Sequence record: OP870145.1
Reading direction: 5' to 3' (one strand)
Source: Escherichia phage vB_Eco_F26
Length of the DNA stretch: 64,000 nt
The stretch's first letter is position 1. Every line of letters begins with the position of its first letter. Positions 5,484 to 56,978 of this stretch are shown here, one piece after another. The translations under genes and the position numbers were made by a program. Under the pieces are notes generated by a model. That model did not search any database. It was not told the origin of the DNA and saw only the letters and a program-made list of their open reading frames with translations.

Positions 5484-5550
5484 TTAATATCCTCTTTGTT
5501 TTGGTTTATTTTATCAAAAAATTTATAAAGCAATATAGGAGCCGAAGCTC

Positions 5551-9812: not shown

Positions 9813-10283
9813 TTAATCATGTTTCCACACCCCATCGGTATTTGACCAAAGCCGCTGATTATCTGATCCTCTCCACAGCTTTTTAGTCGGAAGATTTTTC
9901 TCATACTTCCCATCAATAATAACATCAACATATTTAAGCATTTCTAGTTGTTTAATATCTTCAAACTTATATCCTGTCCACAACCAAATGCTTTTATTGG
10001 GATAAAGATTTTTTACTGTTTGAACGATGCAATGAATCACGTCTCTGTTATCAGGATAAAGAGGGTCACCTCCGGTTATAGTTAATCCTTCTATATAATC
10101 ATTATTCAAACATTCAATTAATTGTTCTAGTGTTTCACCAGTGAATGGAACGCCATTTCTAGCATTCCATGTTGATTTATTATAACACCCTTCGCATTTA
10201 TGCAAACAACCTGTAACGAAAAGAACGGTCCTGCATCCAGGACCATTAACAAAGCAGCACGGGTATATTCTGTCATAATTCAT
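9813..10283 (-). CDS. nrdG: Anaerobic ribonucleotide reductase activating protein (radical SAM)
   Basis: CxxxCxxC cluster motif (GCLHKCEGC); 156 aa from the second Met, the length recalled for T4 NrdG; adjacent to nrdD. Confidence 0.88.
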   Translation of the reverse strand: MNYDRIYPCCFVNGPGCRTVLFVTGCLHKCEGCYNKSTWNARNGVPFTGETLEQLIECLNNDYIEGLTITGGDPLYPDNRDVIHCIVQTVKNLYPNKSIWLWTGYKFEDIKQLEMLKYVDVIIDGKYEKNLPTKKLWRGSDNQRLWSNTDGVWKHD

Positions 10284-11110
10284 AATAATATCCAATTTTT
10301 CCAAGCTTCATCAGTAGAATTACAGCGTTTTAGTATAAGATGTCTAGAAACTTTTATGGCATTTGAGCACTTTTTAATTGAATCATATTTAATACCGTCA
10401 ACTGAAACGGTTTTGCTAGTTGGAGAAATTTTTCCATACATTGGATTTTTTGAACCAACTTGAAGTCCTTTTAAAGCTTTTGAAAGCTTTTGTCTAGATT
10501 CCAATGACATGGGAGAATTCTTTTTACCTTCAATAATTCGCTTGCGATGAAGTTCGCGTTCTTCTTCACTCAAAGAATTGTAATATTTTTTAACACCGTT
10601 TGATATAGATAATTTATCTTTCTCAGACCGCTCTCCAGCTAATTTACTTCTAACATCTTTTCGCTTCATAGCTATGCTTACAGCTTTATTTAAATTTGCT
10701 TGATGCTCTGGCGTACGTTTATATTTCTTTAAAGCACGTGAAATAGCTATTTTAGTTTCTTCTGTTCTCTTTTTACCTTTATTTGCTAAACTATTTTTGC
10801 GGCGATGCTCAAGTGTCTGTTCATAGGCAGTTCCACCTTTTCCACCAGGTTTAATATTATATGTGTTTTCTTTTAGACAATACTCTTCGGTTACAAGTTC
10901 AGCTTCTTTATCATACATTTGTTTTTCATTATCAAAAACATGTAAAATTTCTTTATTAAAATTTTTTCTACCATATTTTAATAAAGCGGCACGAATCAAT
11001 GTTCCTGATCCCATATAACCGTCATTTATGTTATCGGTGCTATGCGCACCGATATATTCCTTTGAATTAATTATATTTGTTATTTTATAAATTATATAAT
11101 ACCTATGCAT
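10280..11110 (-). CDS. GIY-YIG homing-endonuclease-like protein (free-standing, between nrdG and nrdD)
   Basis: 276 aa; N-terminal YYIIYKITNIINSKEYIGAHS GIY-YIG module; repeated basic DNA-binding-like modules in the C-terminal half. Confidence 0.65.
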   Translation of the reverse strand: MHRYYIIYKITNIINSKEYIGAHSTDNINDGYMGSGTLIRAALLKYGRKNFNKEILHVFDNEKQMYDKEAELVTEEYCLKENTYNIKPGGKGGTAYEQTLEHRRKNSLANKGKKRTEETKIAISRALKKYKRTPEHQANLNKAVSIAMKRKDVRSKLAGERSEKDKLSISNGVKKYYNSLSEEERELHRKRIIEGKKNSPMSLESRQKLSKALKGLQVGSKNPMYGKISPTSKTVSVDGIKYDSIKKCSNAIKVSRHLILKRCNSTDEAWKNWILL

Positions 11111-12400
11111 GTTTTACTCGTTTTACCATTTCTTTCATTTTACCTAAATTCCATGGAACAACGCTAGGAGTTCCAAGATATCCGCATGTTCTTCTTATTG
11201 TGTTCATCTTTTTAGGATCAGTTTCTCCACAAATAGAACAAACAAATCCGTTTTCAGTAGGAGTCATTTCATGGGTACTTCCACATGTAAAACATTTATC
11301 TACTGGCATATTAACACCAAAATAATCTAAATGTTGTGCAGCATAATCCCATACGGCCTCAAGGCCTTTCAAGTTATTTTTCATATCAGGAAGTTCAACA
11401 TAAGAAATGTGACCACCTGTCGCAATGAAATGATACGGAGCTTCGCGAGAAATCTTTTCAAACGGAGTAATATTTTCTTCTACTGAAACGTGGAAACTGT
11501 TAGTGTACCAGCCTTTATCGGTAACATCTTTTACACTTCCATATTTTTCGGTATCAAGTTTACAGAAGCGATAGCACAGGTTTTCAGCAGGAGTAGAATA
11601 CAAACTAAAAGCAAAACCGGTTCTTTCAGTCCACTGCTTAAGACGAGCATTCATTTTAGTCAAAATTTCCTGTCCAATATCACGACCGACAAGAATATTC
11701 AATTCGTGAATACCAATGTATCCTAGGGATACTGAACTTCTACCGTTTTTAAATAACTCAATTATGTCATCATCAGGTTTAAGACGAACCCCGAATGCAC
11801 CTTCTTGGTAAAGAATAGGAGCAACAGTAGCTTTAACTCCTTTTAAGGAACTAATTCTACACATCAAAGCTTCAAAACACAGGTCCATTCGCTCGTCGAA
11901 CAATTCAGTAAATTTCTGTTCATTGAACTGTGTTCCAATATAAGAATCTAACGCGATGCGAGGAAGATTCAGTGTTACAACGCCAAGATTATTACGACCG
12001 TCAAGAATTTCATTACCGGTCGAATCTTTCCATACGCTCAAGAAACTACGGCAGCCCATTGGAGAAACTGGAACTGAAGAACCAGTGATAGCTTTATTGT
12101 TCTTAGCTGAAATAATATCAGGATACATTCTTTTGCTTGCACATTCTAACGCAAGTTGTTTAATATCATAGTTTGGATCATCTTTATAAAGATTAACACC
12201 TTCTTCAACAAACATAACAAGTTTAGGAAAAATAGGAGTTATTCCATCACGACCAAGACCTTTAATGCGGTTTTTAAGAATTGCCTTCTGAATCATTCGT
12301 TCGGTCCAATCGGTTCCTGTACCAAATGTAATTGTTACAAAAGGCGTTTGTCCGTTTGAACTAAAAAGAGTATTTACTTCATCATTATATTCAGCATGAG
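11103..12400 (-). CDS. nrdD: Anaerobic ribonucleoside-triphosphate reductase NrdD, exon 2 (C-terminal ~430 aa); 5' boundary approximate
   Basis: Glycyl-radical motif RRTCGYLG and C-terminal Cys cluster; gene interrupted by an intron carrying an endonuclease ORF, as in T4 nrdD (sunY). Confidence 0.85.
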
Positions 12401-13430
12401 TCGCAAATTCATGCCCGTTTATATGAAACAACAAAATTTGGATAGTCCATAGATATGCAACGTTCTTTTATAGCGCTAGGATGAAAATTTAGCGCTTTAG
12501 CTGCTTCTATATAAGACGTATACTTAATACCGTCAACAACCACATATTCAGGAACTTTATGAATAGTAGTCTTAATACTCAAAACAAGAGGATGAGTTTC
12601 GACTTCACTTTCAGTGCAATTTAAATATTCCGCTGCTTTTTTAAAACTTCTAAAAGTTTTATTTTTAAGCTTTATCGATACTTGTTTTTTACTTTTTCGA
12701 CTATTGATATTATTTTGCACATGTTCCTTAGATCTTCCGTTTTTAGCATAATATTCAGCTACAGAAGATTTTATATTGTTTTTATGAGATTCGGATAACA
12801 CTTTACCCTTATGAGCATCTCTTAATTTTTGAATATGTTCTTCAGTATCCGGATGCTTATAAAACTTTTTACCGCCTATGGATTTATTTAAACATTTTTT
12901 GCTATAAAAATATTTACGTATGACCTCTTCTTCATGTTTTAATGCATCTTTATAACTATCAAATGTTTTTAAAATTATCCATTTAGTAGGTGTATCAGTT
13001 TTTAAGCGTTCATTTATATACTTAGATGACGTTGTGTAAGTTTTCCAGTTTGTGGGCTTGTTTTTAATTGTTCTAAATTTTTTATAACCGATATAAATGT
13101 CGCCATTAGAAAACTTAACTAAGTATGTAAATGCGTCTTTATCTTTTATTTTAGTACAACGTCTTTTTATCCATTTCATTGTTTCACCTCGTATTCATAA
13201 GATAATCTTATTTATACAAGATGACTGCTGCATGTCGCCATGCAGATTAGACTATATCTTCATCTTTCGATGCCGGCCGTTTCGAATAGCATTAGCTTCT
13301 ATTCTACACCGCTACATTCATCACGGTTAGTCGTTAGGCATTTAGTTCAAAAGAACATTTAGCACGGGATTGTCTACTAGAGAGGTTCCCCGTTTAGACC
13401 GGTTTTACATGAGCCTGAATTAAATTAACT
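12400..13430 (-). mobile_element. Group I intron in nrdD (approximate bounds) carrying a GIY-YIG endonuclease ORF
   Basis: About 1 kb separates the two nrdD coding segments; contains a 256-aa GIY-YIG ORF and a ~240-nt ORF-free structured region (13180-13420). Confidence 0.75.
12409..13179 (-). CDS. Intron-encoded GIY-YIG homing endonuclease (I-TevII-like)
   Basis: 256 aa; FTYLVKFSNGDIYIGYKK GIY-YIG module; lies inside the nrdD intron. Confidence 0.7.
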   Translation of the reverse strand: MKWIKRRCTKIKDKDAFTYLVKFSNGDIYIGYKKFRTIKNKPTNWKTYTTSSKYINERLKTDTPTKWIILKTFDSYKDALKHEEEVIRKYFYSKKCLNKSIGGKKFYKHPDTEEHIQKLRDAHKGKVLSESHKNNIKSSVAEYYAKNGRSKEHVQNNINSRKSKKQVSIKLKNKTFRSFKKAAEYLNCTESEVETHPLVLSIKTTIHKVPEYVVVDGIKYTSYIEAAKALNFHPSAIKERCISMDYPNFVVSYKRA

Positions 13431-37873: not shown

Positions 37874-38137
37874 TTATTTCATATTATTGAAATATTCTTC
37901 TGCGATTTCATCGTTATCGTGGTAAACTTTAGAAGACAGTTTAACATAACCTTCAGCAGTGAACATATTAATCACAACTTTTACAGTATACCACTGACCG
38001 TCTTCATTACCCATTACTGCGTAAGTTTCAAACATCGGATGGTCAGGACCGATAACTTTAATATCATTCACTGTACGACCGAAATCTTCTGAAACGCATT
38101 TCATAAAGAAGTTGAACAGTTCGCCGTAATTATCCAT
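37874..38137 (-). CDS. Hypothetical small protein (start region duplicated in the adjacent tandem repeat)
   Basis: 87 aa from ATG at 38137 (MDNYGELFNFF...), GGAG 7 nt upstream; track ORF uses an upstream TTG. Confidence 0.5.
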   Translation of the reverse strand: MDNYGELFNFFMKCVSEDFGRTVNDIKVIGPDHPMFETYAVMGNEDGQWYTVKVVINMFTAEGYVKLSSKVYHDNDEIAEEYFNNMK

Positions 38138-38180
38138 TTCATTCTCCAAGTTGTTTTCTGTATCAGTAGTTGATAGTTGT

Positions 38181-38210
38181 ATAGTACCACGGAAGAACAG
38201 AGATGTAAAC
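38181..38210 (-). promoter_or_regulatory. Early promoter (-35 GTTTAC / -10 TACTAT), conserved module; copy 1
   Basis: Minus strand ttcacaaaactGTTTACatctctgttcttccgtggTACTAT. Confidence 0.55.
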
Positions 38211-38530
38211 AGTTTTGTGAAAAATTTTTTAAAAAGTTTTAGGGAATTCTAGGGAAGGGAGGGGCAATTAAAGGATAGGATAATATATTATAAAGGGTAG
38301 AAACTAAATGATGCCTAGAGAGGTCCAGAAAGGCCTAGATGCCAAAAAGCCCTATCATTTAGATAGGGATTTAAAATTATTTATCTAGTTTAGTTATTAT
38401 AGCTTCTACGGCAGCTTTTAGCTTAGATGCGGTGTTAATACGATTTTTAATTTCAGTATACGCGAACAGTTCGCCGTAATTATCCATTTCATTCTCCAAG
38501 TTGTTTTCTGTATCAGTAGTTGATAGTTGT

Positions 38531-38560
38531 ATAGTACCACGGAAGAACAGAGATGTAAAC
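38531..38560 (-). promoter_or_regulatory. Early promoter, duplicate copy 2 inside the tandem repeat
   Basis: Identical to 38181-38210 at +350. Confidence 0.5.
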
Positions 38561-38726
38561 AGTTTTGTGAAAAATTTTTTAAAAAGTTTTAGGGAATTCT
38601 AGGGAAGGGAGGGGCAATTAAAGGATAGGATAATATATTATAAAGGGTAGAAACTAAATGATGCCTAGAGAGGTCCAGAAAGGCCTAGATGCCAAAAAGC
38701 CCTATCATTTAGATAGGGATTTAAAA

Positions 38727-39290
38727 TTATTTATCTAGTTTAGTTATTATAGCTTCTACGGCAGCTTTTAGCTTAGATGCGGTGTTAATACGATTTTTAA
38801 TTTCAGTATACGCATCGCCAAGAACATCAAGGCTATCAGAATAAACACTTACACTATTGCGTTCGCTATTTGAAATAGAACCTTTAGTTTTACGATCAAA
38901 ATCGGTGTACACGTCTTGAAGATCACGCGCTGCCTTCTTTGCATCATCCAATGCATCAAGAGCTTTATTCAAAGCATTAACGTATTTTTTAGTGTCGAAC
39001 ATATTCTTAGAAATTTTAGCAGGTGCACGTTCAGGAGTAGCTAATACAGATTTAGGAACCTGAGCGCCAGATGCCAATTTCTTAGAAATTTTGAAAAACG
39101 CTTTATTGAATTTATTTTCTTGACTCATCGTAAAAGAACTATTATCGATGTTGTACATTTCAATAGCTTTAGCTTTCCACTTAAGAAAATCGCCGCGGTC
39201 TTTTGGGTCCAAGTGGAAAAATACTTTAGTAAGATCTGCTTCAGATGGTAATTTTGCTGCTTCGGTTAAAAATTCGGCATAGGTTTTCAT
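38727..39290 (-). CDS. Internal-protein (IP)-like capsid-injected protein
   Basis: 187 aa; N-terminus MKTYAEFLTEA matches the IP capsid-targeting consensus. Confidence 0.65.
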   Translation of the reverse strand: MKTYAEFLTEAAKLPSEADLTKVFFHLDPKDRGDFLKWKAKAIEMYNIDNSSFTMSQENKFNKAFFKISKKLASGAQVPKSVLATPERAPAKISKNMFDTKKYVNALNKALDALDDAKKAARDLQDVYTDFDRKTKGSISNSERNSVSVYSDSLDVLGDAYTEIKNRINTASKLKAAVEAIITKLDK

Positions 39291-40643: not shown

Positions 40644-40719
40644 TGGTCGAGACAGTAGGGATCGAACCTACGACCTAGGACTTAGAAGGTCCTTGCTCTT
40701 CCTTCTGAGCTATGCCCCG
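40644..40719 (-). tRNA. tRNA-Arg (anticodon UCU), CCA encoded
   Basis: Hand-folded cloverleaf: 7-bp acceptor stem, T-loop GGTTCGATCC, anticodon loop CTTCTAA. Confidence 0.8.
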
Positions 40720-40723
40720 TAAT

Positions 40724-40799
40724 TGGGGTGACCGATGGGAGTCGAACCCATGACTACGAGAATCACAATCTCGAGTTCTACCAACTGAACTACGGCCAC
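40724..40799 (-). tRNA. tRNA with anticodon GUG (His-like), C73 discriminator, no encoded G-1; CCA encoded
   Basis: Hand fold: acceptor GTGGCCG/CGGTCAC, anticodon stem CGAGA/TCTCG, loop TTGTGAT. Confidence 0.65.
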
Positions 40800-40913
40800 A
40801 TTAATACCTACTCCAACAATCAAGATGTCTTCACACGAAATTAAGAGAAGAGTGATCAGTTCAACCCCTATAATCGCGTCAAGTAGATATTAATGTGACA
40901 GTTGTCACAAATT

Positions 40914-40988
40914 TGGCGGACGTGATAGGATTCGAACCTATAACCAATCGCTTAACAGGCGATCGCTCTGCCATTGAGCTACACATCC
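40914..40988 (-). tRNA. tRNA-Asn (anticodon GUU), CCA encoded
   Basis: Hand fold: acceptor GGATGTG/CACGTCC, anticodon loop CTGTTAA, G73. Confidence 0.7.
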
Positions 40989-40992
40989 AAAT

Positions 40993-41079
40993 TGGTGGGG
41001 AGTGGTGGAGTCGAACCACCCGAGTCGCAATGACAATGGATTTACAGTCCACACCGCTACCTCTACGGGATAACTCCCC
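40993..41079 (-). tRNA. tRNA-Tyr (anticodon GUA), type II long variable arm, CCA encoded
   Basis: Hand fold: acceptor GGGGAGT/ACTCCCC, anticodon loop CTGTAAA, A73. Confidence 0.7.
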
Positions 41080-41088
41080 AAATTAATT

Positions 41089-41163
41089 TGGTGGCCCTGG
41101 GTGGAATTGAACCACCATCTGGCGATTATGAGTCGCTTGCTTGAACCTTCCAGCTACAGGGCC
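41089..41163 (-). tRNA. tRNA with anticodon CAU (Met, or Ile if C34 is lysidine-modified), CCA encoded
   Basis: Hand fold: acceptor GGCCCTG/CAGGGCC, anticodon loop CTCATAA. Confidence 0.65.
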
Positions 41164-41171
41164 AAATTTTC

Positions 41172-41657
41172 TTATTTTATGTAATATTTATTTAAAAACT
41201 TTCTAGCTTGAGTATGGCTAACATTTATAGCGTTTGCATAATTTTTAATAAAACCTCGTTCATCCATATTAAAATTTTCTAATATTTTTAATCGTCTAGT
41301 TATCTCATCTTGGCTTAAGGTACTTGCATTATTTTTAGAAATTTTTTCTAAGGACTGTGCCGAGTGTTTTCGACCATTAAAATTAAAATTTTTAGATTTT
41401 GGAGGAAATCTATTATTTAGTCTCGCATCTTTTGTATTTTGATTATTAGTTGCGCAATATATGTTATTTAATGAATATGGTCCTTTATCGCCGAAACGGC
41501 ACATGCAGTATTCATGACCCTTTCTTCCACGCTTATCATATTTTCCCGTTGATTTCCACCAATGCAGCCATTCATCAAAAGTTAAATTCCATTCAATGTT
41601 TCTACGTATAGCAGAATTCCGCTGAGAAATATATTTTGCATAATCTTCTTTCATCAC
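41172..41657 (-). CDS. Putative HNH-type homing-endonuclease-like protein embedded in the tRNA cluster
   Basis: 161 aa; HEYCMCRFGDKGPYSLNNIYCATNNQN His/Cys/Asn-rich core; splits the tRNA cluster. Confidence 0.4.
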   Translation of the reverse strand: MMKEDYAKYISQRNSAIRRNIEWNLTFDEWLHWWKSTGKYDKRGRKGHEYCMCRFGDKGPYSLNNIYCATNNQNTKDARLNNRFPPKSKNFNFNGRKHSAQSLEKISKNNASTLSQDEITRRLKILENFNMDERGFIKNYANAINVSHTQARKFLNKYYIK

Positions 41658-41701
41658 AAATTTCTCTACTTATTCAATACACCAAGCTAAATCAGCAAAA
41701 C

Positions 41702-41791
41702 TGGCGGAGGCGATAGGATTTGAACCTATGAGTCGCCGGAGCGACTGCCGGTTTTCAAGACCGATGCATTAAACCACTCTGCCACGCCTCC
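41702..41791 (-). tRNA. tRNA-Ser (anticodon UGA), type II, CCA encoded
   Basis: Hand fold: acceptor GGAGGCG/CGCCTCC, anticodon loop CTTGAAA, long variable arm. Confidence 0.8.
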
Positions 41792-41793
41792 AG

Positions 41794-41867
41794 TCTCCGT
41801 GGCAGGATTTGAACCTACGACATTCTGCTCCCAAAGCAGACGCTCTACCAAACTGAGCTACACGGAG
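41794..41867 (-). tRNA. tRNA-Pro (anticodon UGG), CCA not encoded
   Basis: Hand fold: acceptor CTCCGTG/CACGGAG, anticodon loop TTTGGGA; only 2 nt separate it from tRNA-Ser. Confidence 0.75.
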
Positions 41868-41877
41868 TAAATTAAAT

Positions 41878-41951
<74 letters not shown>

Positions 41952-41956
41952 AAATT

Positions 41957-42043
41957 TGGTGCGAGAAGTGGGACTCGAACCCACAAGGAAATCATTCCGC
42001 AGCATTTTAAGTGCTGTGCCTTTACCAATTTGACCATTCTCGC
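41957..42043 (-). tRNA. tRNA-Leu (anticodon UAA), type II, CCA encoded
   Basis: Hand fold: acceptor GCGAGAA/TTCTCGC, anticodon loop CTTAAAA, long variable arm. Confidence 0.8.
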
Positions 42044-42044
42044 G

Positions 42045-42117
42045 CTGGGAATAAAGGACTCGAACCTTTGCATCTAGCAGTCAAAGTGCTATGCCTTACC
42101 AACTTGGCTAATTCCCA
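42045..42117 (-). tRNA. tRNA-Gln (anticodon UUG), CCA not encoded
   Basis: Hand fold: acceptor TGGGAAT/ATTCCCA, anticodon loop CTTTGAC. Confidence 0.75.
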
Positions 42118-46484: not shown

Positions 46485-46492
46485 TATAAATA
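46485..46492 (+). promoter_or_regulatory. Late promoter TATAAATA upstream of gene 53
   Basis: Exact TATAAATA 29 nt upstream of the ATG, followed by RBS AGGAGGG; lies in the divergent region between gene 4 (minus) and gene 53 (plus). Confidence 0.65.
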
Positions 46493-46520: not shown

Positions 46521-47111
46521 ATGCTCTTTACATTTTTTGATCCGATTGAATATGCGGCCAAAACGGTGAATAAAAACGCGCCGACTATTCCTATGACAGA
46601 TATTTTTAGAAACTATAAAGACTATTTTAAACGTGCTCTTGCGGGATACCGCTTACGTACTTATTATATCAAAGGTTCACCACGCCCGGAAGAATTAGCA
46701 AATGCTATATATGGAAATCCACAGCTGTATTGGGTTTTATTGATGTGTAATGATAATTATGACCCGTATTATGGATGGATTACTTCACAAGAAGCTGCTT
46801 ATCAAGCATCTATACAAAAATACAAAAACGTAGGTGGAGACCAAATAGTATATCATGTGAATGAGAACGGTGAAAAATTTTATAATTTAATATCATACGA
46901 TGATAATCCATATGTTTGGTATGATAAAGGCGATAAAGCTAGAAAATATCCTCAATATGAAGGAGCACTTGCTGCGGTCGATACGTATGAAGCGGCTGTT
47001 CTTGAAAATGAAAAACTTCGTCAAATAAAAATAATAGCAAAATCAGACATCAATTCATTTATGAACGACCTTATACGTATAATGGAGAAATCTTATGGAA
47101 ATGATAAGTAA
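46521..47111 (+). CDS. 53: Baseplate wedge protein gp53
   Basis: 196 aa, same length as T4 gp53; first gene of the plus-strand baseplate operon. Confidence 0.88.
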   Translation: MLFTFFDPIEYAAKTVNKNAPTIPMTDIFRNYKDYFKRALAGYRLRTYYIKGSPRPEELANAIYGNPQLYWVLLMCNDNYDPYYGWITSQEAAYQASIQKYKNVGGDQIVYHVNENGEKFYNLISYDDNPYVWYDKGDKARKYPQYEGALAAVDTYEAAVLENEKLRQIKIIAKSDINSFMNDLIRIMEKSYGNDK

Positions 47112-48867
47112 TAACCTCAACTGGTTTGTTGGTGTTGTTGAAGATAGAATGGACCCATTAAAATTAGGTCGTGTTCGTGTTCGTGTGGTTGGTCTGCATC
47201 CACCTCAAAGAGCGCAAGGCGACGTAATGGGTATTCCAACTGAAAAATTACCATGGATGTCAGTTATTCAACCTATAACTTCTGCAGCAATGTCTGGAAT
47301 TGGAGGTTCTGTTACTGGACCGGTAGAAGGAACTAGAGTTTATGGTCATTTTTTGGACAAATGGAAAACTAACGGAATTGTCCTTGGCACGTATGGCGGA
47401 ATAGTTCGCGAAAAACCGAATAGACTTGAAGGATTTTCTGACCCAACTGGGCAATATCCTAGACGTTTAGGAAATGATACTAACGTACTAAACCAAGGCG
47501 GAGAAGTAGGATATGATTCGTCTTCTAATATTATCCAAGATAGTAACTTAGACACCGCAATAAATCCCGATGATAGACCGTTATCAGAAATTCCAACCGA
47601 TGATAATCCAAATATGTCAATGGCTGAAATGCTTCGCCGTGATGAAGGATTAAGACTAAAAGTTTATTGGGATACCGAAGGATATCCGACAATTGGTATT
47701 GGTCATCTTATCATGAAGCAGCCAGTTCGTGATATGGCTCAAATTAATAAAGTTTTATCGAAACAAGTTGGTCGTGAAATTACAGGAAATCCAGGTTCTA
47801 TTACAATGGAAGAGGCGACGACTTTATTTGAGCGTGATTTGGCTGATATGCAACGTGACATTAAATCACATTCTAAAGTAGGACCAGTCTGGCAAGCTGT
47901 CAACCGTTCTCGCCAAATGGCATTAGAAAATATGGCATTTCAGATGGGTGTTGGCGGTGTAGCTAAATTTAACACAATGTTAACTGCTATGTTAGCAGGA
48001 GATTGGGAAAAAGCATATAAAGCCGGTCGTGATTCATTGTGGTATCAACAGACAAAAGGCCGTGCATCCCGTGTTACTATGATTATTCTTACGGGAAATT
48101 TGGAATCATATGGTGTTGAAGTGAAAACCCCAGCTAGGTCTCTATCAGCAATGGCTGCTACTGTAGCTAAATCTTCTGACCCTGCTGATCCTCCTATTCC
48201 AAATGACTCGAGAATTTTATTCAAAGAACCAGTTTCTTCATATAAAGGCGAATATCCTTATGTGCATACAATGGAAACTGAAAGCGGACATATTCAGGAA
48301 TTTGATGATACCCCTGGGCAAGAACGATACAGATTAGTTCATCCGACTGGAACATATGAGGAAGTATCACCGTCAGGAAGAAGAACAAGAAAAACTGTTG
48401 ATAATTTGTATGATATAACAAATGCTGATGGTAATTTTTTGGTAGCCGGTGATAAAAAGACTAACGTCGGTGGATCAGAAATTTATTACAACATGGACAA
48501 TCGTCTTCACCAAATAGATGGAAGCAATACAATATTTGTGCGCGGCGATGAAACTAAGACGGTTGAAGGTAATGGAACTATCCTAGTTAAAGGTAATGTT
48601 AAAGTAGTTATTCAAGGAACAGCAGATATAACTGTTGAACAGGAAGCATACATAACTGTTGAAAAAGACACGACTGTTAATGTTAACCAAAACGCAGACA
48701 TAAGTGTTAAAAATAAAGCAACTGTTAATGCTGAAAATATGGATGTCAACGTTGAGCAAGATTTAAATTTTTCAGCGACAAATATTAATTTAAGTGCATC
48801 TAATACTGTTCATATGGATGGCGGGGTTCTTTCTAAAGTATCAGGTGGAAACGTACAGGTTGGTTAA
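47095..48867 (+). CDS. 5: Baseplate hub / cell-puncturing protein with lysozyme domain gp5
   Basis: 590 aa; MEMISNNLNWFVGVVED... OB-fold N-terminus, central T4-lysozyme-like domain (MAEMLRRDEGLRLKVYWDTEGYPTIGIGHL), C-terminal repeat-rich beta-helix. Confidence 0.93.
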   Translation: MEMISNNLNWFVGVVEDRMDPLKLGRVRVRVVGLHPPQRAQGDVMGIPTEKLPWMSVIQPITSAAMSGIGGSVTGPVEGTRVYGHFLDKWKTNGIVLGTYGGIVREKPNRLEGFSDPTGQYPRRLGNDTNVLNQGGEVGYDSSSNIIQDSNLDTAINPDDRPLSEIPTDDNPNMSMAEMLRRDEGLRLKVYWDTEGYPTIGIGHLIMKQPVRDMAQINKVLSKQVGREITGNPGSITMEEATTLFERDLADMQRDIKSHSKVGPVWQAVNRSRQMALENMAFQMGVGGVAKFNTMLTAMLAGDWEKAYKAGRDSLWYQQTKGRASRVTMIILTGNLESYGVEVKTPARSLSAMAATVAKSSDPADPPIPNDSRILFKEPVSSYKGEYPYVHTMETESGHIQEFDDTPGQERYRLVHPTGTYEEVSPSGRRTRKTVDNLYDITNADGNFLVAGDKKTNVGGSEIYYNMDNRLHQIDGSNTIFVRGDETKTVEGNGTILVKGNVKVVIQGTADITVEQEAYITVEKDTTVNVNQNADISVKNKATVNAENMDVNVEQDLNFSATNINLSASNTVHMDGGVLSKVSGGNVQVG

Positions 48868-48868
48868 T

Positions 48869-50905
48869 ATGAATTATAACGAAATTGTTGATGAATTAGT
48901 TGATACCATACAATCAGCTTGTTCAATTATTCCCGAAGGTTATTATAGACGAGTTAAATGGGAATTATACAATCCCAATAAAGAAATGATTCAACCCGAT
49001 AATGGGGTTGAATGGGACACTGAAATTATTAAATTAGATACCCATCTTTACACTGAAAATCCATTTGGTCATTCTTCTGATACATTTACTGAATCATCTG
49101 ATGGAGAAACCCAAACTGGTGTTTTTTGTCATAAAATCGGCGTGTATTTTCCAACTCAAACTGCGTTAGAAGATTACGTTGAACAAATTGGTGCAACTTT
49201 ACTTCCGGGTAATACTTGGTATGGTGCTGATTTATCGAAACGTGAATTTTTTAAAACTGAAATTGAATATGATATGTATCGCATTGAAAATCGCGGAGGT
49301 ACATGGCATCATACGGGTCCTAGAATAGATGCTAGGACAATGATCGGTGTTAACAATGACTATACAATGTATGTTAACTTTAACGGTTTAGGAGATTATC
49401 GAAGAGCATATTTAAAATATTATGAAGATAAACCATGTACATATGTCGGTTTAACACTAAATTTAAATATAGATACATCAATTCCCGGTATTCCTTATTC
49501 ACCTCCATCAATTATTGGAGAGCTTCCACTTAATGCAATTTCATGCGTTAATTTTACTGCCCAATTTCCATACAATGGCTTAACATCTGCAATTATTGAG
49601 GCTTGGAACACCTCAAGAGATTCATTTAAACTATATTGGGATATGTTGCCTGGTATGCCGGCAATTAGCGGAAGTGATTTCGAAAAATATTTTAATTCGG
49701 CATATACACATTTATCTGTAGCAATGGAAGAGCTTGGAAATTCGGCAATTGCTATGTGTCAATATGTTCAGCAACAAGCCTTTATGGTTTTTAAAAATTC
49801 TGTTTCACAAGTTCTAAATATTGTCGGTGGCGGATGGGATTTATTAAAAAGTTTTTTACCTAAAATAACAATAATGGGCATATCTATTGATATTGAAGAT
49901 TTATGTACATCAACAGATGGTGTTCAAAAATTGAAGGAAACCTTTGAAAATTTTAATCTGGAAGATACTATTAGTTCAATTTATTCTGCAATGGGTTCTG
50001 CATATGACTATTCTATAGAACGCGTTAAAATGTATTCGCGGGATTTAGTTGATGCAATAACAGATTTATATGATTGGGCCTGGTCAAAATTAATGATGGC
50101 TGGTGTCGCTTTATCAAAATTATGTGTTGATTTAGCACAAATCTGGAGCATGCCACCAATTATTCCAAATCCAGTGTGGTCTGTTATCACTTTAGTGAAG
50201 GAAATGATGAAACAAATTCCTCCATTAGATATGATTATGTCAGGTAATTTTCCTGGATTTACTGCTTCTGATGTATATCAGATGGTTATGTCTATTGTAT
50301 CTGAAAAAATTAAACAAGTTTATACTGAAATAGAATCATTAAAAACCCAAGCATTGGATGTATGGAATGAAATTAAACTAAAAACACAGGAATATAAAAA
50401 GCAAACGATTGAATTTAAACAATATTTATCAGGAATGGCTGAAAAGGTTGAAGATGAAATAACTATAGCAAAAGAGAAAGCATTACAAGAAGCTGAATCC
50501 GCTTTAAATGTTTTAAAGGATAAATATAACAGTATTAAAGACTTAATAAAAAATAAGCAGATTTCTGTGTCTGATGTATTAGATTTAGCTTTGACTGAAT
50601 TTCGAAAAATTCCATTAATTTCACAAATGGAATCATTATTATCTTTAGCTGGAGCATCTATCGATGATATAATGAAAGTATATGAAAATAGCGTTACTAA
50701 AGCAAAATCATTATATCACGAATTCACCGATGGCGCTCGGTCAATGAAAGATCTATGCAAATCATTATACAATCAAATTTCGACTTTATGTTTGAGTAAG
50801 GTTGTGCAATGGATTAATAAAATGCTTGGAATATTTGGATTAAGTATTACATTTCCAACAGTATCAATATGCATTCCATGCTTAAAAACTCCTATGAGGA
50901 ATTAA
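48869..50905 (+). CDS. Large hypothetical protein between genes 5 and 6
   Basis: 678 aa from ATG 48869 (1 nt after gp5 stop); track ORF start at 48794 overlaps gp5 and is probably not used; coiled-coil-rich C-terminal third and hydrophobic C-terminus. Confidence 0.6.
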   Translation: MNYNEIVDELVDTIQSACSIIPEGYYRRVKWELYNPNKEMIQPDNGVEWDTEIIKLDTHLYTENPFGHSSDTFTESSDGETQTGVFCHKIGVYFPTQTALEDYVEQIGATLLPGNTWYGADLSKREFFKTEIEYDMYRIENRGGTWHHTGPRIDARTMIGVNNDYTMYVNFNGLGDYRRAYLKYYEDKPCTYVGLTLNLNIDTSIPGIPYSPPSIIGELPLNAISCVNFTAQFPYNGLTSAIIEAWNTSRDSFKLYWDMLPGMPAISGSDFEKYFNSAYTHLSVAMEELGNSAIAMCQYVQQQAFMVFKNSVSQVLNIVGGGWDLLKSFLPKITIMGISIDIEDLCTSTDGVQKLKETFENFNLEDTISSIYSAMGSAYDYSIERVKMYSRDLVDAITDLYDWAWSKLMMAGVALSKLCVDLAQIWSMPPIIPNPVWSVITLVKEMMKQIPPLDMIMSGNFPGFTASDVYQMVMSIVSEKIKQVYTEIESLKTQALDVWNEIKLKTQEYKKQTIEFKQYLSGMAEKVEDEITIAKEKALQEAESALNVLKDKYNSIKDLIKNKQISVSDVLDLALTEFRKIPLISQMESLLSLAGASIDDIMKVYENSVTKAKSLYHEFTDGARSMKDLCKSLYNQISTLCLSKVVQWINKMLGIFGLSITFPTVSICIPCLKTPMRN

Positions 50906-50906
50906 A

Positions 50907-52886
50907 ATGACAACCCCTGTAAATTATCAATTAACAAGAACAGCAAATGCTATTCCCGAGATATTCGTCGGGGGTACGTTTGCTGAAATAAAACAAAACC
51001 TCATTGAATGGCTTAATGGCCAAAATGAATTTTTGGATTATGATTTTGAAGGCTCAAGATTAAACGTTCTGTGTGACCTTTTGGCTTATAATACGCTGTA
51101 CATTCAACAGTTTGGTAATGCTGCTGTGTATGAAAGCTTTATGCGTACTGCTAACTTACGAAGTTCAGTTGTTCAAGCTGCACAAGATAACGGATATTTA
51201 CCTACTTCAAAATCCGCTGCGCAGACCGAAATTATGTTAACATGCACCGACGCATTGAATAGGAATTACATTACTATTCCTCGCGGAACTCGCTTTTTAG
51301 CATATGCAAAAGATACTTCTGTTAATCCATATAACTTCGTTTCTACCGAAGACGTTATTGCCATTCGTGATAAAAATAACCAATATTTTCCACGTTTAAA
51401 ATTGGCCCAGGGACGTATAGTAAGAACTGAAATCATTTATGATAAATTAACACCTATTATCATTTATGATAAAAATATTGATAGAAACCAGGTTAAATTA
51501 TATGTTGATGGAGCGGAATGGATTAACTGGACGAGAAAGTCAATGGTTCATGCTGGTTCAACATCAACGATTTATTATATGCGTGAAACTATTGATGGAA
51601 ACACTGAATTCTATTTTGGTGAAGGTGAAATTTCTGTTAATGCTTCTGAAGGAGCTTTGACCGCTAATTATATCGGAGGTCTTAAACCTACTCAGAACTC
51701 TACGATTGTTATTGAGTACATCAGTACTAATGGTGCTGACGCGAACGGAGCAGTCGGATTTTCATACGCAGATACATTAACAAATATAACTGTCATCAAT
51801 ATTAATGAAAATCCAAACGATGACCCAGATTTTGTTGGTGCAGATGGCGGCGGTGATCCAGAAGATATTGAGCGTATTCGCGAATTGGGTACTATTAAAC
51901 GCGAAACCCAGCAACGCTGCGTAACTGCAACTGACTATGATACATTCGTTTCAGAAAGATTTGGTTCTATTATTCAAGCAGTTCAGACTTTCACTGATTC
52001 TACTAAACCTGGTTATGCATTTATTGCTGCTAAACCTAAATCAGGTCTGTATTTAACTACTGTACAGCGCGAAGATATTAAAAATTATCTCAAAGACTAT
52101 AATTTAGCTCCTATTACGCCATCAATTATTTCTCCTAATTATCTTTTTATTAAGACTAATTTAAAAGTCACATATGCTTTAAATAAACTGCAAGAATCCG
52201 AACAGTGGCTCGAAGGTCAAATAATTGATAAAATTGATCGTTATTATACCGAAGATGTAGAAATTTTTAACTCGTCTTTCGCTAAATCTAAGATGTTAAC
52301 TTATGTAGATGATGCAGATCATTCTATCATTGGTTCATCAGCGACAATTCAAATTGTTCGTGAAGTACAAAACTTCTATAAAACGCCTGAAGCAGGTATT
52401 AAATACAATAATCAAATAAAAGATCGTTCTATGGAATCTAATACGTTTTCATTTAATTCTGGACGAAAGGTTGTAAATCCTGATACTGGTTTAGAAGAAG
52501 ATGTATTATATGACGTTCGCATAGTATCAACAGACCGAGATTCTAAAGGAATTGGTAAAGTTATTATTGGTCCATTTGCTTCTGGCGATGTTACAGAAAA
52601 TGAAAACATTCAGCCGTATACAGGCAATGATTTTAATAAATTAGCAAATTCTGATGGACGTGACAAATATTATATTATCGGTGAAATAAATTATCCAGCT
52701 GACATGATTTATTGGAATATCGCTAAAATTAATTTAACATCTGAAAAATTTGAAGTTCAGACCATTGAATTATATTCTGACCCAACCGATGATGTTATCT
52801 TTACTCGCGATGGTTCACTGATTGTATTTGAAAATGACTTACGTCCACAATACTTAACTATCGATTTGGAGCCTATATCACAATGA
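50907..52886 (+). CDS. 6: Baseplate wedge protein gp6
   Basis: 659 aa (T4 gp6 ~660); synteny. Confidence 0.9.
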   Translation: MTTPVNYQLTRTANAIPEIFVGGTFAEIKQNLIEWLNGQNEFLDYDFEGSRLNVLCDLLAYNTLYIQQFGNAAVYESFMRTANLRSSVVQAAQDNGYLPTSKSAAQTEIMLTCTDALNRNYITIPRGTRFLAYAKDTSVNPYNFVSTEDVIAIRDKNNQYFPRLKLAQGRIVRTEIIYDKLTPIIIYDKNIDRNQVKLYVDGAEWINWTRKSMVHAGSTSTIYYMRETIDGNTEFYFGEGEISVNASEGALTANYIGGLKPTQNSTIVIEYISTNGADANGAVGFSYADTLTNITVININENPNDDPDFVGADGGGDPEDIERIRELGTIKRETQQRCVTATDYDTFVSERFGSIIQAVQTFTDSTKPGYAFIAAKPKSGLYLTTVQREDIKNYLKDYNLAPITPSIISPNYLFIKTNLKVTYALNKLQESEQWLEGQIIDKIDRYYTEDVEIFNSSFAKSKMLTYVDDADHSIIGSSATIQIVREVQNFYKTPEAGIKYNNQIKDRSMESNTFSFNSGRKVVNPDTGLEEDVLYDVRIVSTDRDSKGIGKVIIGPFASGDVTENENIQPYTGNDFNKLANSDGRDKYYIIGEINYPADMIYWNIAKINLTSEKFEVQTIELYSDPTDDVIFTRDGSLIVFENDLRPQYLTIDLEPISQ

Positions 52887-55800
52887 CAGTAAAAGCACCT
52901 TCAGTCACTAGTCTCAGAATTTCCAAGTTATCCGCAAATCAGGTGCAAGTACGCTGGGATGACGTTGGTGCTAATTTCTACTATTTTGTAGAAATCGCTG
53001 AGACAAAAACAAACTCGGGGGAAAAACTCCCGAGTGATCAATATCGTTGGATTAATTTAGGATATACAGCAAATAATAGTTTCTTTTTTGATGATGCTGA
53101 TCCATTAACAACATACATTATTAGAGTAGCTACGGCGGCGCAAGATTTTGAGCAGTCTGATTGGATTTATACCGAAGAGTTTGAAACTTTTGCTACAAAT
53201 GCTTATACATTTCAAAACATGATTGAAATGCAATTAGCTAATAAATTCATTCAGGAAAAATTTACTCTTAATAATTCTGATTATGTTAATTTTAATAATG
53301 ACACTATAATGGCTGCATTGATGAATGAATCATTTCAATTCAGCCCATCATATGTTGATGTTTCATCAATCAGTAATTTTATTATTGGTGAAAATGAGTA
53401 TCATGAAATACAAGGTTCTATTCAGCAAGTATGTAAGGATATTAACCGAGTTTATTTGATGGAATCAGAAGGGATTCTATATCTTTTTGAGCGTTATCAA
53501 CCTGTAGTTAAAGTATCTAATGATAAAGGACAAACCTGGAAAGCTGTAAAGCTCTTCAATGACCGCGTAGGATATCCTTTATCTAAGACTGTATATTACC
53601 AATCTGCAAACACAACATACGTTCTAGGATACGACAAGGTCTTCTATGGCCGTAAATCGACTGACGTTAGATGGTCAGCCGATGATGTCAGATTTAGTTC
53701 TCAGGATATAACATTTGCTAAATTAGGAGACCAACTTCATTTAGGATTCGATGTTGAAATCTTCGCTACTTATGCTACTTTACCAGCGAATGTATACCGT
53801 ATAGCTGAGGCTATTACTTGCACGGATGATTATATCTATGTTGTTGCCAGAGATAAAGTTAGATACATAAAAACGAGTAATGCACCTATAGATTCTGACC
53901 CATTATCTCCAACATATTCGGAAAGACTTTTTGAACCTGACACAATGACTATAACCGGAAATCCTAAAGCAGTATGCTATAAAATGGATTCTGTTGGTGA
54001 TAAAGTTTTTGCTCTTATTATTGGTGAAGTTGAAACATTAAATGCCAATCCGAGAACTTCAAAAATAATTGATTCCTCTGATAAAGGAATATATGTTTTA
54101 AATCATGACACAAAAACGTGGAAAAGAGTTTTTGGTAATACCGAAGAAGAAAGAAGACGTATTCAACCCGGATATGCGAATATGTCAACTGATGGTAAAT
54201 TAGTTTCTCTGTCTTCGAGTAATTTTAAATTTTTAAGCGATAATGTTGTTAATGACCCTGAAACTGTGGTGAAATATCAGTTAATCGGTGCTGTTAAATA
54301 TGAATTTCCTCGTGAATGGTTAGCTGATAAGCATTATCATATGATGGCATTTATAGCGGATGAAAAATCTGATTGGGAGACTTTTACTCCTCAACCAATG
54401 AAATACTACGCAGAACCATTCTTTAACTGGTCTAAAAAATCTAACACACGTTGTTGGATAAACAACTCCGATAGGGTTGTAGTAGTTTATGCTGATTTAA
54501 AATACACCAAAGTTATAGAAAATATTCCGGAAACATCACCAGATAGATTAGTTCATGAATACTGGGATGATGGTGATTGCACTATAGTAATGCCAAATGT
54601 TAAATTCACTGGATTTAAAAAATACGCATCAGGAATGCTTTTCTACAAAGCCTCCGGTGAAATAATTTCTTACTATGATTTTAACTATCGTGTGAGAGAT
54701 ACAGTAGAAATTATTTGGAAACCTACTGAAGTATTTTTGAAAGCATTTTTACAAAACCAAGAGCATGAGACTCCTTGGTCACCAGAAGAAGAGCGTGGAC
54801 TAGCTGACCCCGATTTAAGACCATTAATTGGCACAATGATGCCTGATTCTTATTTGCTACAGGATTCGAATTTTGAAGCATTTTGCGAAGCATATATTCA
54901 GTATCTTTCTGATGGATATGGAACTCAATACAATAATTTACGAAATTTAATTCGTAACAAATATCCACGAGAAGAGCATGCATGGGAATATTTGTGGTCA
55001 GAGATATATAAAAGAAACATTTATTTAAATGCTGATAAACGCGATGCTGTTGCGAGATTCTTTGAATCACGTAGCTACGATTTTTATTCTACTAAAGGAA
55101 TTGAAGCATCATACAAGTTTCTTTTTAAAGTTCTTTATAATGAAGAAGTTGAAATTGAAATTGAATCTGGGGCTGGTACTGAATATGATATAATCGTTCA
55201 ATCTGATTCTTTGACTGAAGATTTAGTAGGACAAACGATTTATACAGCTACAGGAAGATGTAATGTTACTTATATAGAAAGAAGCTATTCTAATGGTAAA
55301 TTGCAATGGACCGTAACTATTCATAATCTTTTGGGACGATTAATTGCTGGTCAAGAAGTTAAAGCAGAAAGACTCCCTAGTTTTGAAGGCGAAATTATTC
55401 GTGGCGTTAAAGGAAAGGATTTGCTTCAAAACAATATAGACTATATTAATAGAAGTAGATCATACTATGTAATGAAAATTAAATCCAATTTACCTTCTTC
55501 CCGCTGGAAATCTGACGTTATTCGTTTTGTTCATCCAGTAGGATTTGGATTTATAGCAATTACCCTTTTAACAATGTTTATTAATGTTGGTTTAACTCTT
55601 AAACATACAGAGACTATAATTAATAAATACAAAAACTATAAATGGGATTCTGGATTGCCTACTGAATACGCTGGTAGAGTAGCTAAATTAACTCCAGCTG
55701 GTGAAATTGAACATGATCCAGTAACAGGCGAAGCAATTTATGAACCTGGTCCAAAGGCTGGTGTAAAATATCCTCTTCCTGATGACTATAATGCTGAAAA

Positions 55801-55981
55801 TAATAATTCAATATTTCAAGGTCAATTGCCGTCTGAACGACGTAAATTAATGAGTCCTTTATTTGATGCATCTGGAACAACATTTGCGCAATTTAGGGAT
55901 TTAGTTAATAAACGTCTAAAAGATAATATAGGAAATCCAAGAGACCCTGAAAATCCAACACAGGTTAAAATAGATGAATGA
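52883..55981 (+). CDS. 7: Baseplate wedge initiator gp7
   Basis: 1032 aa, same length as T4 gp7; synteny. Confidence 0.9.
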   Translation: MTVKAPSVTSLRISKLSANQVQVRWDDVGANFYYFVEIAETKTNSGEKLPSDQYRWINLGYTANNSFFFDDADPLTTYIIRVATAAQDFEQSDWIYTEEFETFATNAYTFQNMIEMQLANKFIQEKFTLNNSDYVNFNNDTIMAALMNESFQFSPSYVDVSSISNFIIGENEYHEIQGSIQQVCKDINRVYLMESEGILYLFERYQPVVKVSNDKGQTWKAVKLFNDRVGYPLSKTVYYQSANTTYVLGYDKVFYGRKSTDVRWSADDVRFSSQDITFAKLGDQLHLGFDVEIFATYATLPANVYRIAEAITCTDDYIYVVARDKVRYIKTSNAPIDSDPLSPTYSERLFEPDTMTITGNPKAVCYKMDSVGDKVFALIIGEVETLNANPRTSKIIDSSDKGIYVLNHDTKTWKRVFGNTEEERRRIQPGYANMSTDGKLVSLSSSNFKFLSDNVVNDPETVVKYQLIGAVKYEFPREWLADKHYHMMAFIADEKSDWETFTPQPMKYYAEPFFNWSKKSNTRCWINNSDRVVVVYADLKYTKVIENIPETSPDRLVHEYWDDGDCTIVMPNVKFTGFKKYASGMLFYKASGEIISYYDFNYRVRDTVEIIWKPTEVFLKAFLQNQEHETPWSPEEERGLADPDLRPLIGTMMPDSYLLQDSNFEAFCEAYIQYLSDGYGTQYNNLRNLIRNKYPREEHAWEYLWSEIYKRNIYLNADKRDAVARFFESRSYDFYSTKGIEASYKFLFKVLYNEEVEIEIESGAGTEYDIIVQSDSLTEDLVGQTIYTATGRCNVTYIERSYSNGKLQWTVTIHNLLGRLIAGQEVKAERLPSFEGEIIRGVKGKDLLQNNIDYINRSRSYYVMKIKSNLPSSRWKSDVIRFVHPVGFGFIAITLLTMFINVGLTLKHTETIINKYKNYKWDSGLPTEYAGRVAKLTPAGEIEHDPVTGEAIYEPGPKAGVKYPLPDDYNAENNNSIFQGQLPSERRKLMSPLFDASGTTFAQFRDLVNKRLKDNIGNPRDPENPTQVKIDE

Positions 55982-56978
55982 TTCAAGTGTTATCTATCGT
56001 GCGATAGTTACTTCAAAATTTAGAACAGAAAAAATGTTGAATTTTTATAATTCAATTGGAAGTGGTCCGGATAAAAACACTATCTTTATCACATTTGGAA
56101 GATCAGAACCGTGGTCATCAAATGAAAATGAGGTGGGCTTTGCCCCACCTTATCCAACCGATTCTGTATTAGGCGTAACTGACATGTGGACGCATATGAT
56201 GGGAACAGTAAAAGTTCTTCCATCAATGCTTGATGCAGTTATTCCTCGTAGAGATTGGGGAGATACTCGATATCCTGATCCATACACATTTAGAATTAAT
56301 GACATTGTAGTGTGTAACTCAGCTCCTTACAACGCTACTGAATCCGGCGCAGGCTGGTTAGTATATCGTTGTTTAGACGTTCCTGATACTGGAATGTGCT
56401 CAATAGCATCTTTAACTGATAAGGATGAATGCCTTAAATTAGGCGGAAAATGGACACCTTCTGTTAGATCAATGACTCCTCCTGAAGGTCGAGGAGATGC
56501 TGAAGGAACAATTGAACCCGGAGACGGGTATGTGTGGGAATATCTATTTGAGATTCCGCCTGATGTATCTATAAATAGATGCACAAATGAATATATCGTA
56601 GTTCCTTGGCCAGAGGAATTAAAAGAAGACCCGACTAGATGGGGATATGAAGATAATCTCACTTGGCAACAAGATGATTTTGGATTAATTTATCGCGTTA
56701 AGGCAAATACTATCCGGTTTAAAGCATATTTAGATTCAGTTTATTTTCCTGAAGCTGCATTGCCGGGAAATAAAGGATTTAGACAAATATCAATAATCAC
56801 GAATCCTCTTGAAGCTAAAGCTAATCCAAATGACCCAAACGTTAAAGCTGAAAAGGATTATTATGATCCGGAAGATTTAATGAGACATTCGGGCGAAATG
56901 ATTTATATGGAAAATAGGCCACCTATTATCATGGCAATGGATCAAACAGAAGAAATCAATATTCTGTTTACATTTTAA
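55974..56978 (+). CDS. 8: Baseplate wedge protein gp8
   Basis: 334 aa, same length as T4 gp8. Confidence 0.9.
   Translation: MNDSSVIYRAIVTSKFRTEKMLNFYNSIGSGPDKNTIFITFGRSEPWSSNENEVGFAPPYPTDSVLGVTDMWTHMMGTVKVLPSMLDAVIPRRDWGDTRYPDPYTFRINDIVVCNSAPYNATESGAGWLVYRCLDVPDTGMCSIASLTDKDECLKLGGKWTPSVRSMTPPEGRGDAEGTIEPGDGYVWEYLFEIPPDVSINRCTNEYIVVPWPEELKEDPTRWGYEDNLTWQQDDFGLIYRVKANTIRFKAYLDSVYFPEAALPGNKGFRQISIITNPLEAKANPNDPNVKAEKDYYDPEDLMRHSGEMIYMENRPPIIMAMDQTEEINILFTF

Follow-up and report, generated by a model that had tools for sequence, protein, structure and literature searches.

What occupies the end of the tail spike in a T4-type phage whose gene 5 is followed by neither gene 5.1 nor gene 5.4? This question is raised by a 64,000-nucleotide (nt) stretch of DNA from Escherichia phage vB_Eco_F26 (sequence record OP870145.1), the whole of which is referred to here as the window. 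In it, an open reading frame (ORF) of 678 amino acids (aa) lies between genes 5 and 6 (48869..50905, + strand), at the site where slur07, a typical T4-genus phage, has two genes, 5.1 (164 aa) and 5.4 (97 aa, annotated as PAAR). By homology, this ORF is a new Tequatrovirus-borne member of a family (RB43 orf205w / Helios gp203; PHROG 5296) whose members two papers of 2025-2026 have put forward as large spike tips of a non-PAAR kind. We consider it likely that its product is a spike tip of the RB43 orf205w type, which caps the gp5 trimer and replaces gp5.4 as well as probably, or at least perhaps, gp5.1.

The ORF begins with an ATG at 48869 and ends with a TAA at 50903-50905, giving a product of 678 aa. 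The gp5 stop codon (TAA, 48865-48867) lies 1 base before this ATG, and the gp6 start codon (ATG, 50907) lies 1 base past the ORF stop. The longest mechanical frame of the ORF reaches an upstream GTG at 48794 (703 aa); the ATG at 48869 is supported as the start because M1 and Y3 of the MxY N-terminus are nearly invariant in 61 homologues. The first-pass annotation of this DNA, made from the letters alone, had described a 678-aa ORF inside the baseplate operon, 1 nt away from both gene 5 and gene 6 and with no recognisable catalytic motif. Both descriptions hold, the latter in that the ORF gave no Pfam domain match at E<=0.01.

Membership of the RB43 orf205w family

A tblastn search of 50,697 phage records found homologues of the ORF in 215 of them, RB43 included, and 213 of these matches were near full length (99-100% query cover). 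The tblastn identities were 72% to WG01 (Dhakavirus), 60% to KM16 (Moonvirus; 60-62% overall range), 56% to Proteus phage PM2 (Bragavirus; 56-57% overall range), 42% to RB43 orf205w (Pseudotevenvirus; 42-44% full-length range), and about 41% to KP15-type Klebsiella, Cronobacter, Citrobacter, Enterobacter and Yersinia phages; global alignments give values 1-2 points above those of tblastn (73.5% for WG01). In addition, the PHROG 5296 profile ("unknown function") aligned to residues 1-673 of the 678 (E=0, 1123 bits), and the match to the RB43 orf205w / PHROG 5296 family is thus a full-length one. In Escherichia phage phT4A (NC_055712.1, 101438-102904), the tblastn match covers ORF residues 190-673 only, and this copy may be an N-terminally truncated or frameshifted tip gene.

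This family has recently received attention. Mattenberger et al. (bioRxiv 10.1101/2025.08.28.672839) solved the structure of T4 gp5.4 on the gp5 beta-helix, reported that T4 gp5.4 matters for fitness and for the infection of deep-rough lipopolysaccharide mutants, and noted that RB43, RB16 and Lw1 are without gene 5.4, the 5.1-5.4 locus being filled by orf205w (~690 aa). In the same work, residues 1-220 of orf205w were described as alpha/beta and the remainder as helical, with low AlphaFold confidence, and orf205w was named as the putative tip on the basis of the missing gene 5.4 and of a 17.7 Å cryo-electron microscopy (cryo-EM) map in which the spike tip density of RB43 is larger. A 2026 Viruses paper (PMC13611949) deals with the same kind of protein, Helios gp203, presents an AlphaFold 3 (AF3) model in which it sits on the trimer of gp5, and suggests that gp203 is structurally analogous to gp5.1 and gp5.4 together. 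In 2006, the RB43 ORF had merely been listed among novel ORFs. The "unknown function" that the first-pass annotation assigned to the window ORF is therefore out of date, given its full-length homology to RB43 orf205w and the proposal that this family forms the spike tip.

The family is narrow and, as far as its sequences go, confined to T4-like phages. We judge it narrow because a word-indexed search of 5.8 billion proteins returned 65 matches, every one of them within the ORF family, and because a profile search made exhaustively over 1.84 billion cluster representatives yielded, apart from fragments, only about eight clusters at 50% identity that are full-length. Outside the true homologues, the same profile search gave matches with E-values of 1e-8 to 1e-4 to the amphipathic helices of tape-measure proteins. 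These matches, together with weak PHROG tape-measure matches (E about 1e-5) and the annotation of the homologues in Roth22 (PQ657795.1) and phi1_146002 (PP889458.1) as "tail length tape measure", would suit a second tape-measure-like protein. However, the matches cover only amphipathic, apolipoprotein-like helical stretches and miss the tape-measure domains of the proteins concerned; the ORF contains no PhageMin_Tail (PF10145) or TMP_3 (PF20155) domain; the closest complete genome already has a gp29 tail-length protein; and the ORF product is predicted to have a globular N-terminal domain and a compact fold. A tape-measure identity is effectively refuted by the missing signature domain, the compositional nature of the similarity and the separately encoded gp29, and we regard it as barely conceivable. 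The annotation in Roth22 and phi1_146002 is probably wrong, having its origin in a weak coiled-coil resemblance to tape-measure PHROGs, and the present result corrects this "tape measure protein" label on some homologues in the databases.

Search for a PAAR-type tip gene

The first-pass annotation had seen no gp5.4-type ORF between gp5 and gp6 and had proposed a search of the rest of the genome for a PAAR-domain ORF. Between the two genes, the ORFs other than the 678-aa one are all nested and at most 60 aa long, in agreement with the former statement. For the latter, the genome beyond the window was represented by the closest complete genome, that of vB_EcoM_G8 (hereafter G8), standing in for the phage's own remainder, and no PAAR tip was found there either by tblastn or with a gp5.4 hidden Markov model (HMM). 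The best tblastn match of T4-type gp5.4 to the window had an E-value of 3, and tblastn with gp5.4 or gp5.1 of T4 type gave nothing in either the window or the remainder of G8. The HMM, built from 31 gp5.4 homologues, was run against six-frame translations of the window and the rest of G8; its best match had E=4, and slur07 gp5.4, used as a positive control, was recovered at 6.5e-56.

We also considered whether the ORF product could itself be a PAAR protein (PF05488). This identity was rejected: the ORF has no such Pfam match, an hhalign comparison of the ORF family profile with the 31-sequence gp5.4 profile gave a probability of 0.04%, and the predicted fold is not a small conical beta-structure. 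At the level of sequence, the ORF product is a protein without PAAR similarity and without an enzyme domain.

Transfer of the ORF together with the gp5 tip

The gp5 protein encoded in the window has the Pfam domains Gp5_OB (1e-65), Phage_lysozyme and Gp5_C, and its two parts are of different type. The body (aa 1-502; 47095..48601, + strand), which comprises the OB domain, the lysozyme and most of the beta-helix, is of T4/Tequatrovirus type, being 99.8% identical to slur07 (T4-type) and 66% to WG01. The C-terminal beta-helix tip (aa 503-590; 48602..48867, + strand), which ends in ...SGGNVQVG, is of RB43/Dhakavirus type; its identity is 31.7% with the corresponding part of slur07 gp5 and 89.8% with that of WG01. 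The adjoining 678-aa ORF has no counterpart gene in slur07. DNA comparison placed the end of T4-type identity near 48601 and its return at the gp6 start codon.

Over 7 kb around the ORF, the window is 97-98.7% identical to about six Tequatrovirus phages (vB_EcoM_G8, SG1, sutha, JEP6, PD112 and BYEP01), and hundreds of further T4-genus records match the flanks only (67% of the query covered). Between the window and G8, 8 of the 2304 nt of the stretch 48602-50905 differ (0.35%), as against 2.1% in the left flank and 1.3% in the right (Fisher p=1e-7 versus the cassette), and the last left-flank difference before the cassette is at 48561. Because of the mosaic breakpoints and, independently, this low divergence from G8, the gp5 tip and the ORF can be taken as one discrete unit. 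The comparisons show that the tip (~88 residues) entered a T4-genus background along with the ORF, in a single cassette of ~2.3 kb, and that this cassette is younger than, or is spreading among, Tequatrovirus backgrounds. The first-pass annotation had overlooked the exchange of the last ~88 gp5 residues along with the ORF.

The right junction of the cassette lies at the gp6 start codon (50897-50915), and the recombination therefore changed the first residues of gp6. The gp6 of the window starts with M-T-T-P and has 659 aa; that of slur07 starts with M-A-N-T-P and is one codon longer (660 aa).

The association of the ORF with this kind of gp5 end extends across the family. The gp5 C-terminus of the window is KVSGGNVQVG, a motif that recurs in six other carriers, and the gp5 proteins of the window, WG01, KM16, PM2, S13 and RB43 all end in K[VI][ST]G[GA][NT]VQVG. 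Even for the most distant homologue (31% identity, on metagenomic contig L011), the upstream gp5 ends in FTGGTVSVG; the T4-type gp5 C-terminus is instead IDGSRIDIG. The ORF directly follows gene 5 in the window, G8, RB43, WG01, KM16, PM2, S13 and L011, with 0-2 nt from the gene 5 stop to the ORF start in every case examined, and the pair stays intact while the baseplate gene order around it varies in S13 and L011. In Cronobacter phage S13 (708-4555), the pair is followed by small unrelated minus-strand genes and not by gp6; in L011 (237-2967), a gp25-like gene stands between the ORF homologue and gp6. The gp5 tip (aa 503-590) is presumed to be the docking platform for the ORF product.

These observations bear on two other explanations. 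The first is that an accessory or selfish element of no relation to its neighbours, for instance a gene for defence or counter-defence, happened to land between genes 5 and 6. In its favour, one could point to the variability of the 5.1-5.4 locus among T4-like phages and to a cassette that is patchily distributed and appears recently spread. However, the ORF is part of a late structural operon, is set off from each neighbour by 1 nt and is always accompanied by a matching gp5 tip; no nuclease, mobility or defence domain was found in it with Pfam or PHROG; and its codon differences from G8 comprise five synonymous and two nonsynonymous ones. We therefore hold such an insertion to be very improbable.

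The second is a non-virion assembly factor or chaperone that folds or trimerises the RB43-type gp5 beta-helix end and is then discarded. T4 morphogenesis relies on several dedicated chaperones encoded beside their clients, and the strict linkage and co-transfer of the ORF with the RB43-type gp5 tip would fit such a role. On the other hand, the spike tip density of RB43 is larger in cryo-EM and these genomes hold no other candidate for it, and a compact 678-aa fold predicted with confidence is unlike the known small phage chaperones. We rate the chaperone explanation as improbable.

Predicted structure and conservation

AlphaFold2, supplied with a 61-sequence family alignment that contains 41 invariant columns, gave a confident model of the ORF product (mean predicted local distance difference test (pLDDT) 87.7; predicted template modelling score 0.80). 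According to DSSP, the model has mixed strands and helices to about aa 280 and is helical over aa 285-655, a layout that agrees with the published description of orf205w. The N-terminal alpha/beta region (aa 1-285; 48869..49723, + strand) accounts for 23 of the 41 columns that are invariant; compared with the PDB, its predicted fold had no match and would be an orphan. The helical region follows (aa 285-655; 49721..50833, + strand). The first-pass annotation had spoken of a coiled-coil-rich C-terminal third, which was right as to helical character and too small as to extent.

Within the helical region, three conserved core helices (H285-319, H389-426 and H622-655) match by position Helios gp203's "triple coiled-coil core". 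An internal pseudo-threefold repeat of the three core helix segments was tried and rejected (hhalign probabilities 1-13%). Conservation peaks in the core helices and at aa 621-660 and is lowest at aa 481-580, in the region of a long antiparallel helical hairpin (aa 466-566, H466-520/H529-566; 50264..50566, + strand) where the family is least conserved. Since the core is conserved and the hairpin variable, the picture agrees with a docking base that is kept and a distal end that varies, and the hairpin is presumably the distal, host-facing end of the modelled protein. The hydrophobic, Cys-containing tail reported by the first-pass annotation was also recovered: aa 651-673 (50819..50887, + strand; GIFGLSITFPTVSICIPCL) reach Kyte-Doolittle values of up to 1.76 and contain C668, which is nearly invariant, and C671, with an extended strand predicted at aa 664-673. 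This tail is one of two conserved hydrophobic segments, the other being aa 408-447.

Such segments raise the possibility that the spike-borne protein serves mainly as a membrane-active cargo and not as a passive sharpening tip. Akin to alpha-helical pore formers of ClyA type or to T3SS translocators, it would detach after penetration, insert its hydrophobic segments or hairpin into a membrane of the host, and perhaps form or prime a DNA conduit. The length of 678 aa far exceeds what a cap needs; the best PDB sequence match of the ORF, although weak (E=0.011), is to Hbl-B; and the weak matches to helical parts of tape-measure proteins can be counted on the same side. However, Foldseek found no match to the ORF model at E<0.1; the structural matches below that level of significance are all generic helical hairpins, confined to the hairpin at aa 466-566, with prefoldin and designed bundles scoring equal or better; and the hydrophobicity maximum of 1.76 is borderline for a transmembrane helix. 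A membrane-active cargo thus appears unlikely.

A putative spike tip on the gp5 trimer

The explanation that we favour is a spike tip of the RB43 orf205w type. The published models, and the fact that gene and gp5 tip moved together, point to binding of the ORF product at the blunt end of the gp5 spike. As a single-copy virion protein, it would dock where the gp5 beta-helix trimer ends in a flat triangle, with a specificity set by the matched C-terminal strands of gp5, and would take the place that gp5.4 (and probably gp5.1) holds in ordinary T4-type phages. The conserved core helices, along with the hydrophobic segments next to them, may make the contact with gp5, and the variable helical hairpin may be directed away from the tail. 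The protein would then be the leading, puncturing end and the first part of the tail to reach the outer membrane upon sheath contraction. Its translation would be coupled to that of gene 5, and its expression would be late.

Several points weigh against this explanation. The assignment of the RB43 tip was itself worded "possibly encoded" and comes from a map at 17.7 Å, and orf205w failed to co-purify with a co-expressed gp5 beta-helix fragment (bioRxiv 10.1101/2025.08.28.672839). The proposed docking surface is taken from another group's AF3 figure legend (PMC13611949, Figure 15), which sets gp203's "triple coiled-coil core" against the last gp5 strand. The co-transfer of the gp5 tip and the ORF could partly be simple linkage. 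Our search of the literature on virion proteomics of the ORF family found no proteomic evidence: the virion mass-spectrometry table of Morganella phage MP1 is without even gp5 and hence uninformative on the ORF product, and a Jiaodavirus virion proteomics paper concerns gp5.4-bearing phages and is likewise uninformative on this family.

Transcription unit and other features of the window

The neighbours of the ORF are those of a T4-type baseplate operon, with Pfam E-values of 1e-40 to 1e-197 for gp53, gp5, gp6, gp7 and gp8. Gene 53 (46521-47111, + strand) is followed by gene 5 (47095-48867, + strand; 590 aa) and, past the ORF, by the baseplate wedge gene 6 (50907..52886, + strand), whose sequence is of T4 type again from its start codon and thereby marks the right cassette boundary, and then by gene 7 (52883-55981) and gene 8 (55974-56978). 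A T4-type late promoter motif, TATAAATA, lies immediately 5' of gene 53 (46485..46492, + strand), and the next + strand copy is found only at 56570. The total of such motifs in the window is no more than expected by chance, and only their position is informative. Because the sole + strand late motif before 56570 precedes gene 53, the ORF can be taken as co-transcribed late with the baseplate genes; genes 53 and 5, the 678-aa ORF and genes 6, 7 and 8 probably form a single late transcription unit.

Some features elsewhere in the window were also recorded. A perfect (100%) tandem duplication with a 350-bp unit occupies 38114-38813. It includes the 3' end of a 187-aa ORF on the minus strand (38727-39290) together with the 5' end of a 91-aa ORF (37874-38149), and yields a 40-aa hybrid ORF (38377-38499) in which the N-terminus of one is joined to the C-terminus of the other. 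This repeat may have arisen by a genuine recent duplication, or it may be an artefact of assembly. On the minus strand, 40644-42117 carries ten transfer RNA genes in two clusters (Arg, His, Asn, Tyr, Met / Ser, Pro, Gly, Leu, Gln), which is ordinary for a T4-type genome. In the early-gene half, the window differs from G8 by insertions or deletions at 1161-2023, 3503-4098, 5474-5506, 10283-11171 and 12444-12794, with an identity of 92-97%; the early-gene region of G8 carries homing-endonuclease genes, and the pattern suggests ordinary mobile-element variation.

Significance and comparison with known systems

What is new here is the boundaries of the cassette, the co-transfer of the gp5 tip with the ORF, the genome-wide absence of a PAAR protein (via G8) and a confident model with an orphan fold in its N-terminal region. 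The RB43-type large tip has resisted biochemical study. Because near-isogenic carriers exist among T4-type phages, for which genetic tools are most developed, the function of the large tip becomes directly testable: phages of the G8, SG1 and PD112 type offer a natural near-isogenic comparison, with backgrounds that, apart from the 2.3-kb cassette, are ~98% identical to those of gp5.4-bearing T4-genus phages. A broader proposition, which we put forward as a doubtful one, is that the tip is an exchangeable two-part module, made up of ~88 gp5 residues and the matching tip protein, that crosses Straboviridae genera by recombination, and that the 678-aa version is at the same time an orphan-fold membrane-active device, whose hydrophobic segments and variable helical hairpin would contact the host envelope or enter it. 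If true, its T4-genus carriers would differ from their gp5.4-bearing siblings, which are otherwise about 98% identical, in how they penetrate the host or in how they depend on its envelope.

Among the known systems, phage tape measure proteins resemble the ORF product in their long amphipathic helices, but the latter has a predicted globular N-terminal domain and no signature domain of theirs. T4 gp5.4 (a PAAR-repeat protein; PDB 4KU0, PF05488) is alike in gene position, just 3' of gene 5, and in the proposed role, since it is a single protein capping the C-terminal platform of the gp5 trimer. UpfB of phage P1, a helical tripod with a distal loop that sits on the PAAR protein UpfC (PDB 9VZK, via PMC13611949), offers a further parallel, being an alpha-helical extension at the extremity of a contractile tail's spike, as the ORF product would be. 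The closest counterpart is RB43 orf205w / Helios gp203, known in Pseudotevenvirus, Slopekvirus, Dhakavirus, Moonvirus, Bragavirus and related Straboviridae. With it the window ORF shares full-length homology, the place directly after gene 5, the missing gene 5.4, an N-terminal alpha/beta part of ~220-280 aa followed by helices, and a partner gp5 that ends in ...VQVG. Unlike RB43 orf205w, the window gene resides in a Tequatrovirus genome whose relatives nearly all have genes 5.1 and 5.4, it was brought in by a cassette with which the C-terminal ~88 residues of gp5 were exchanged too, and its AlphaFold2 model is confident (pLDDT 87.7) where low confidence was stated for the RB43 protein.

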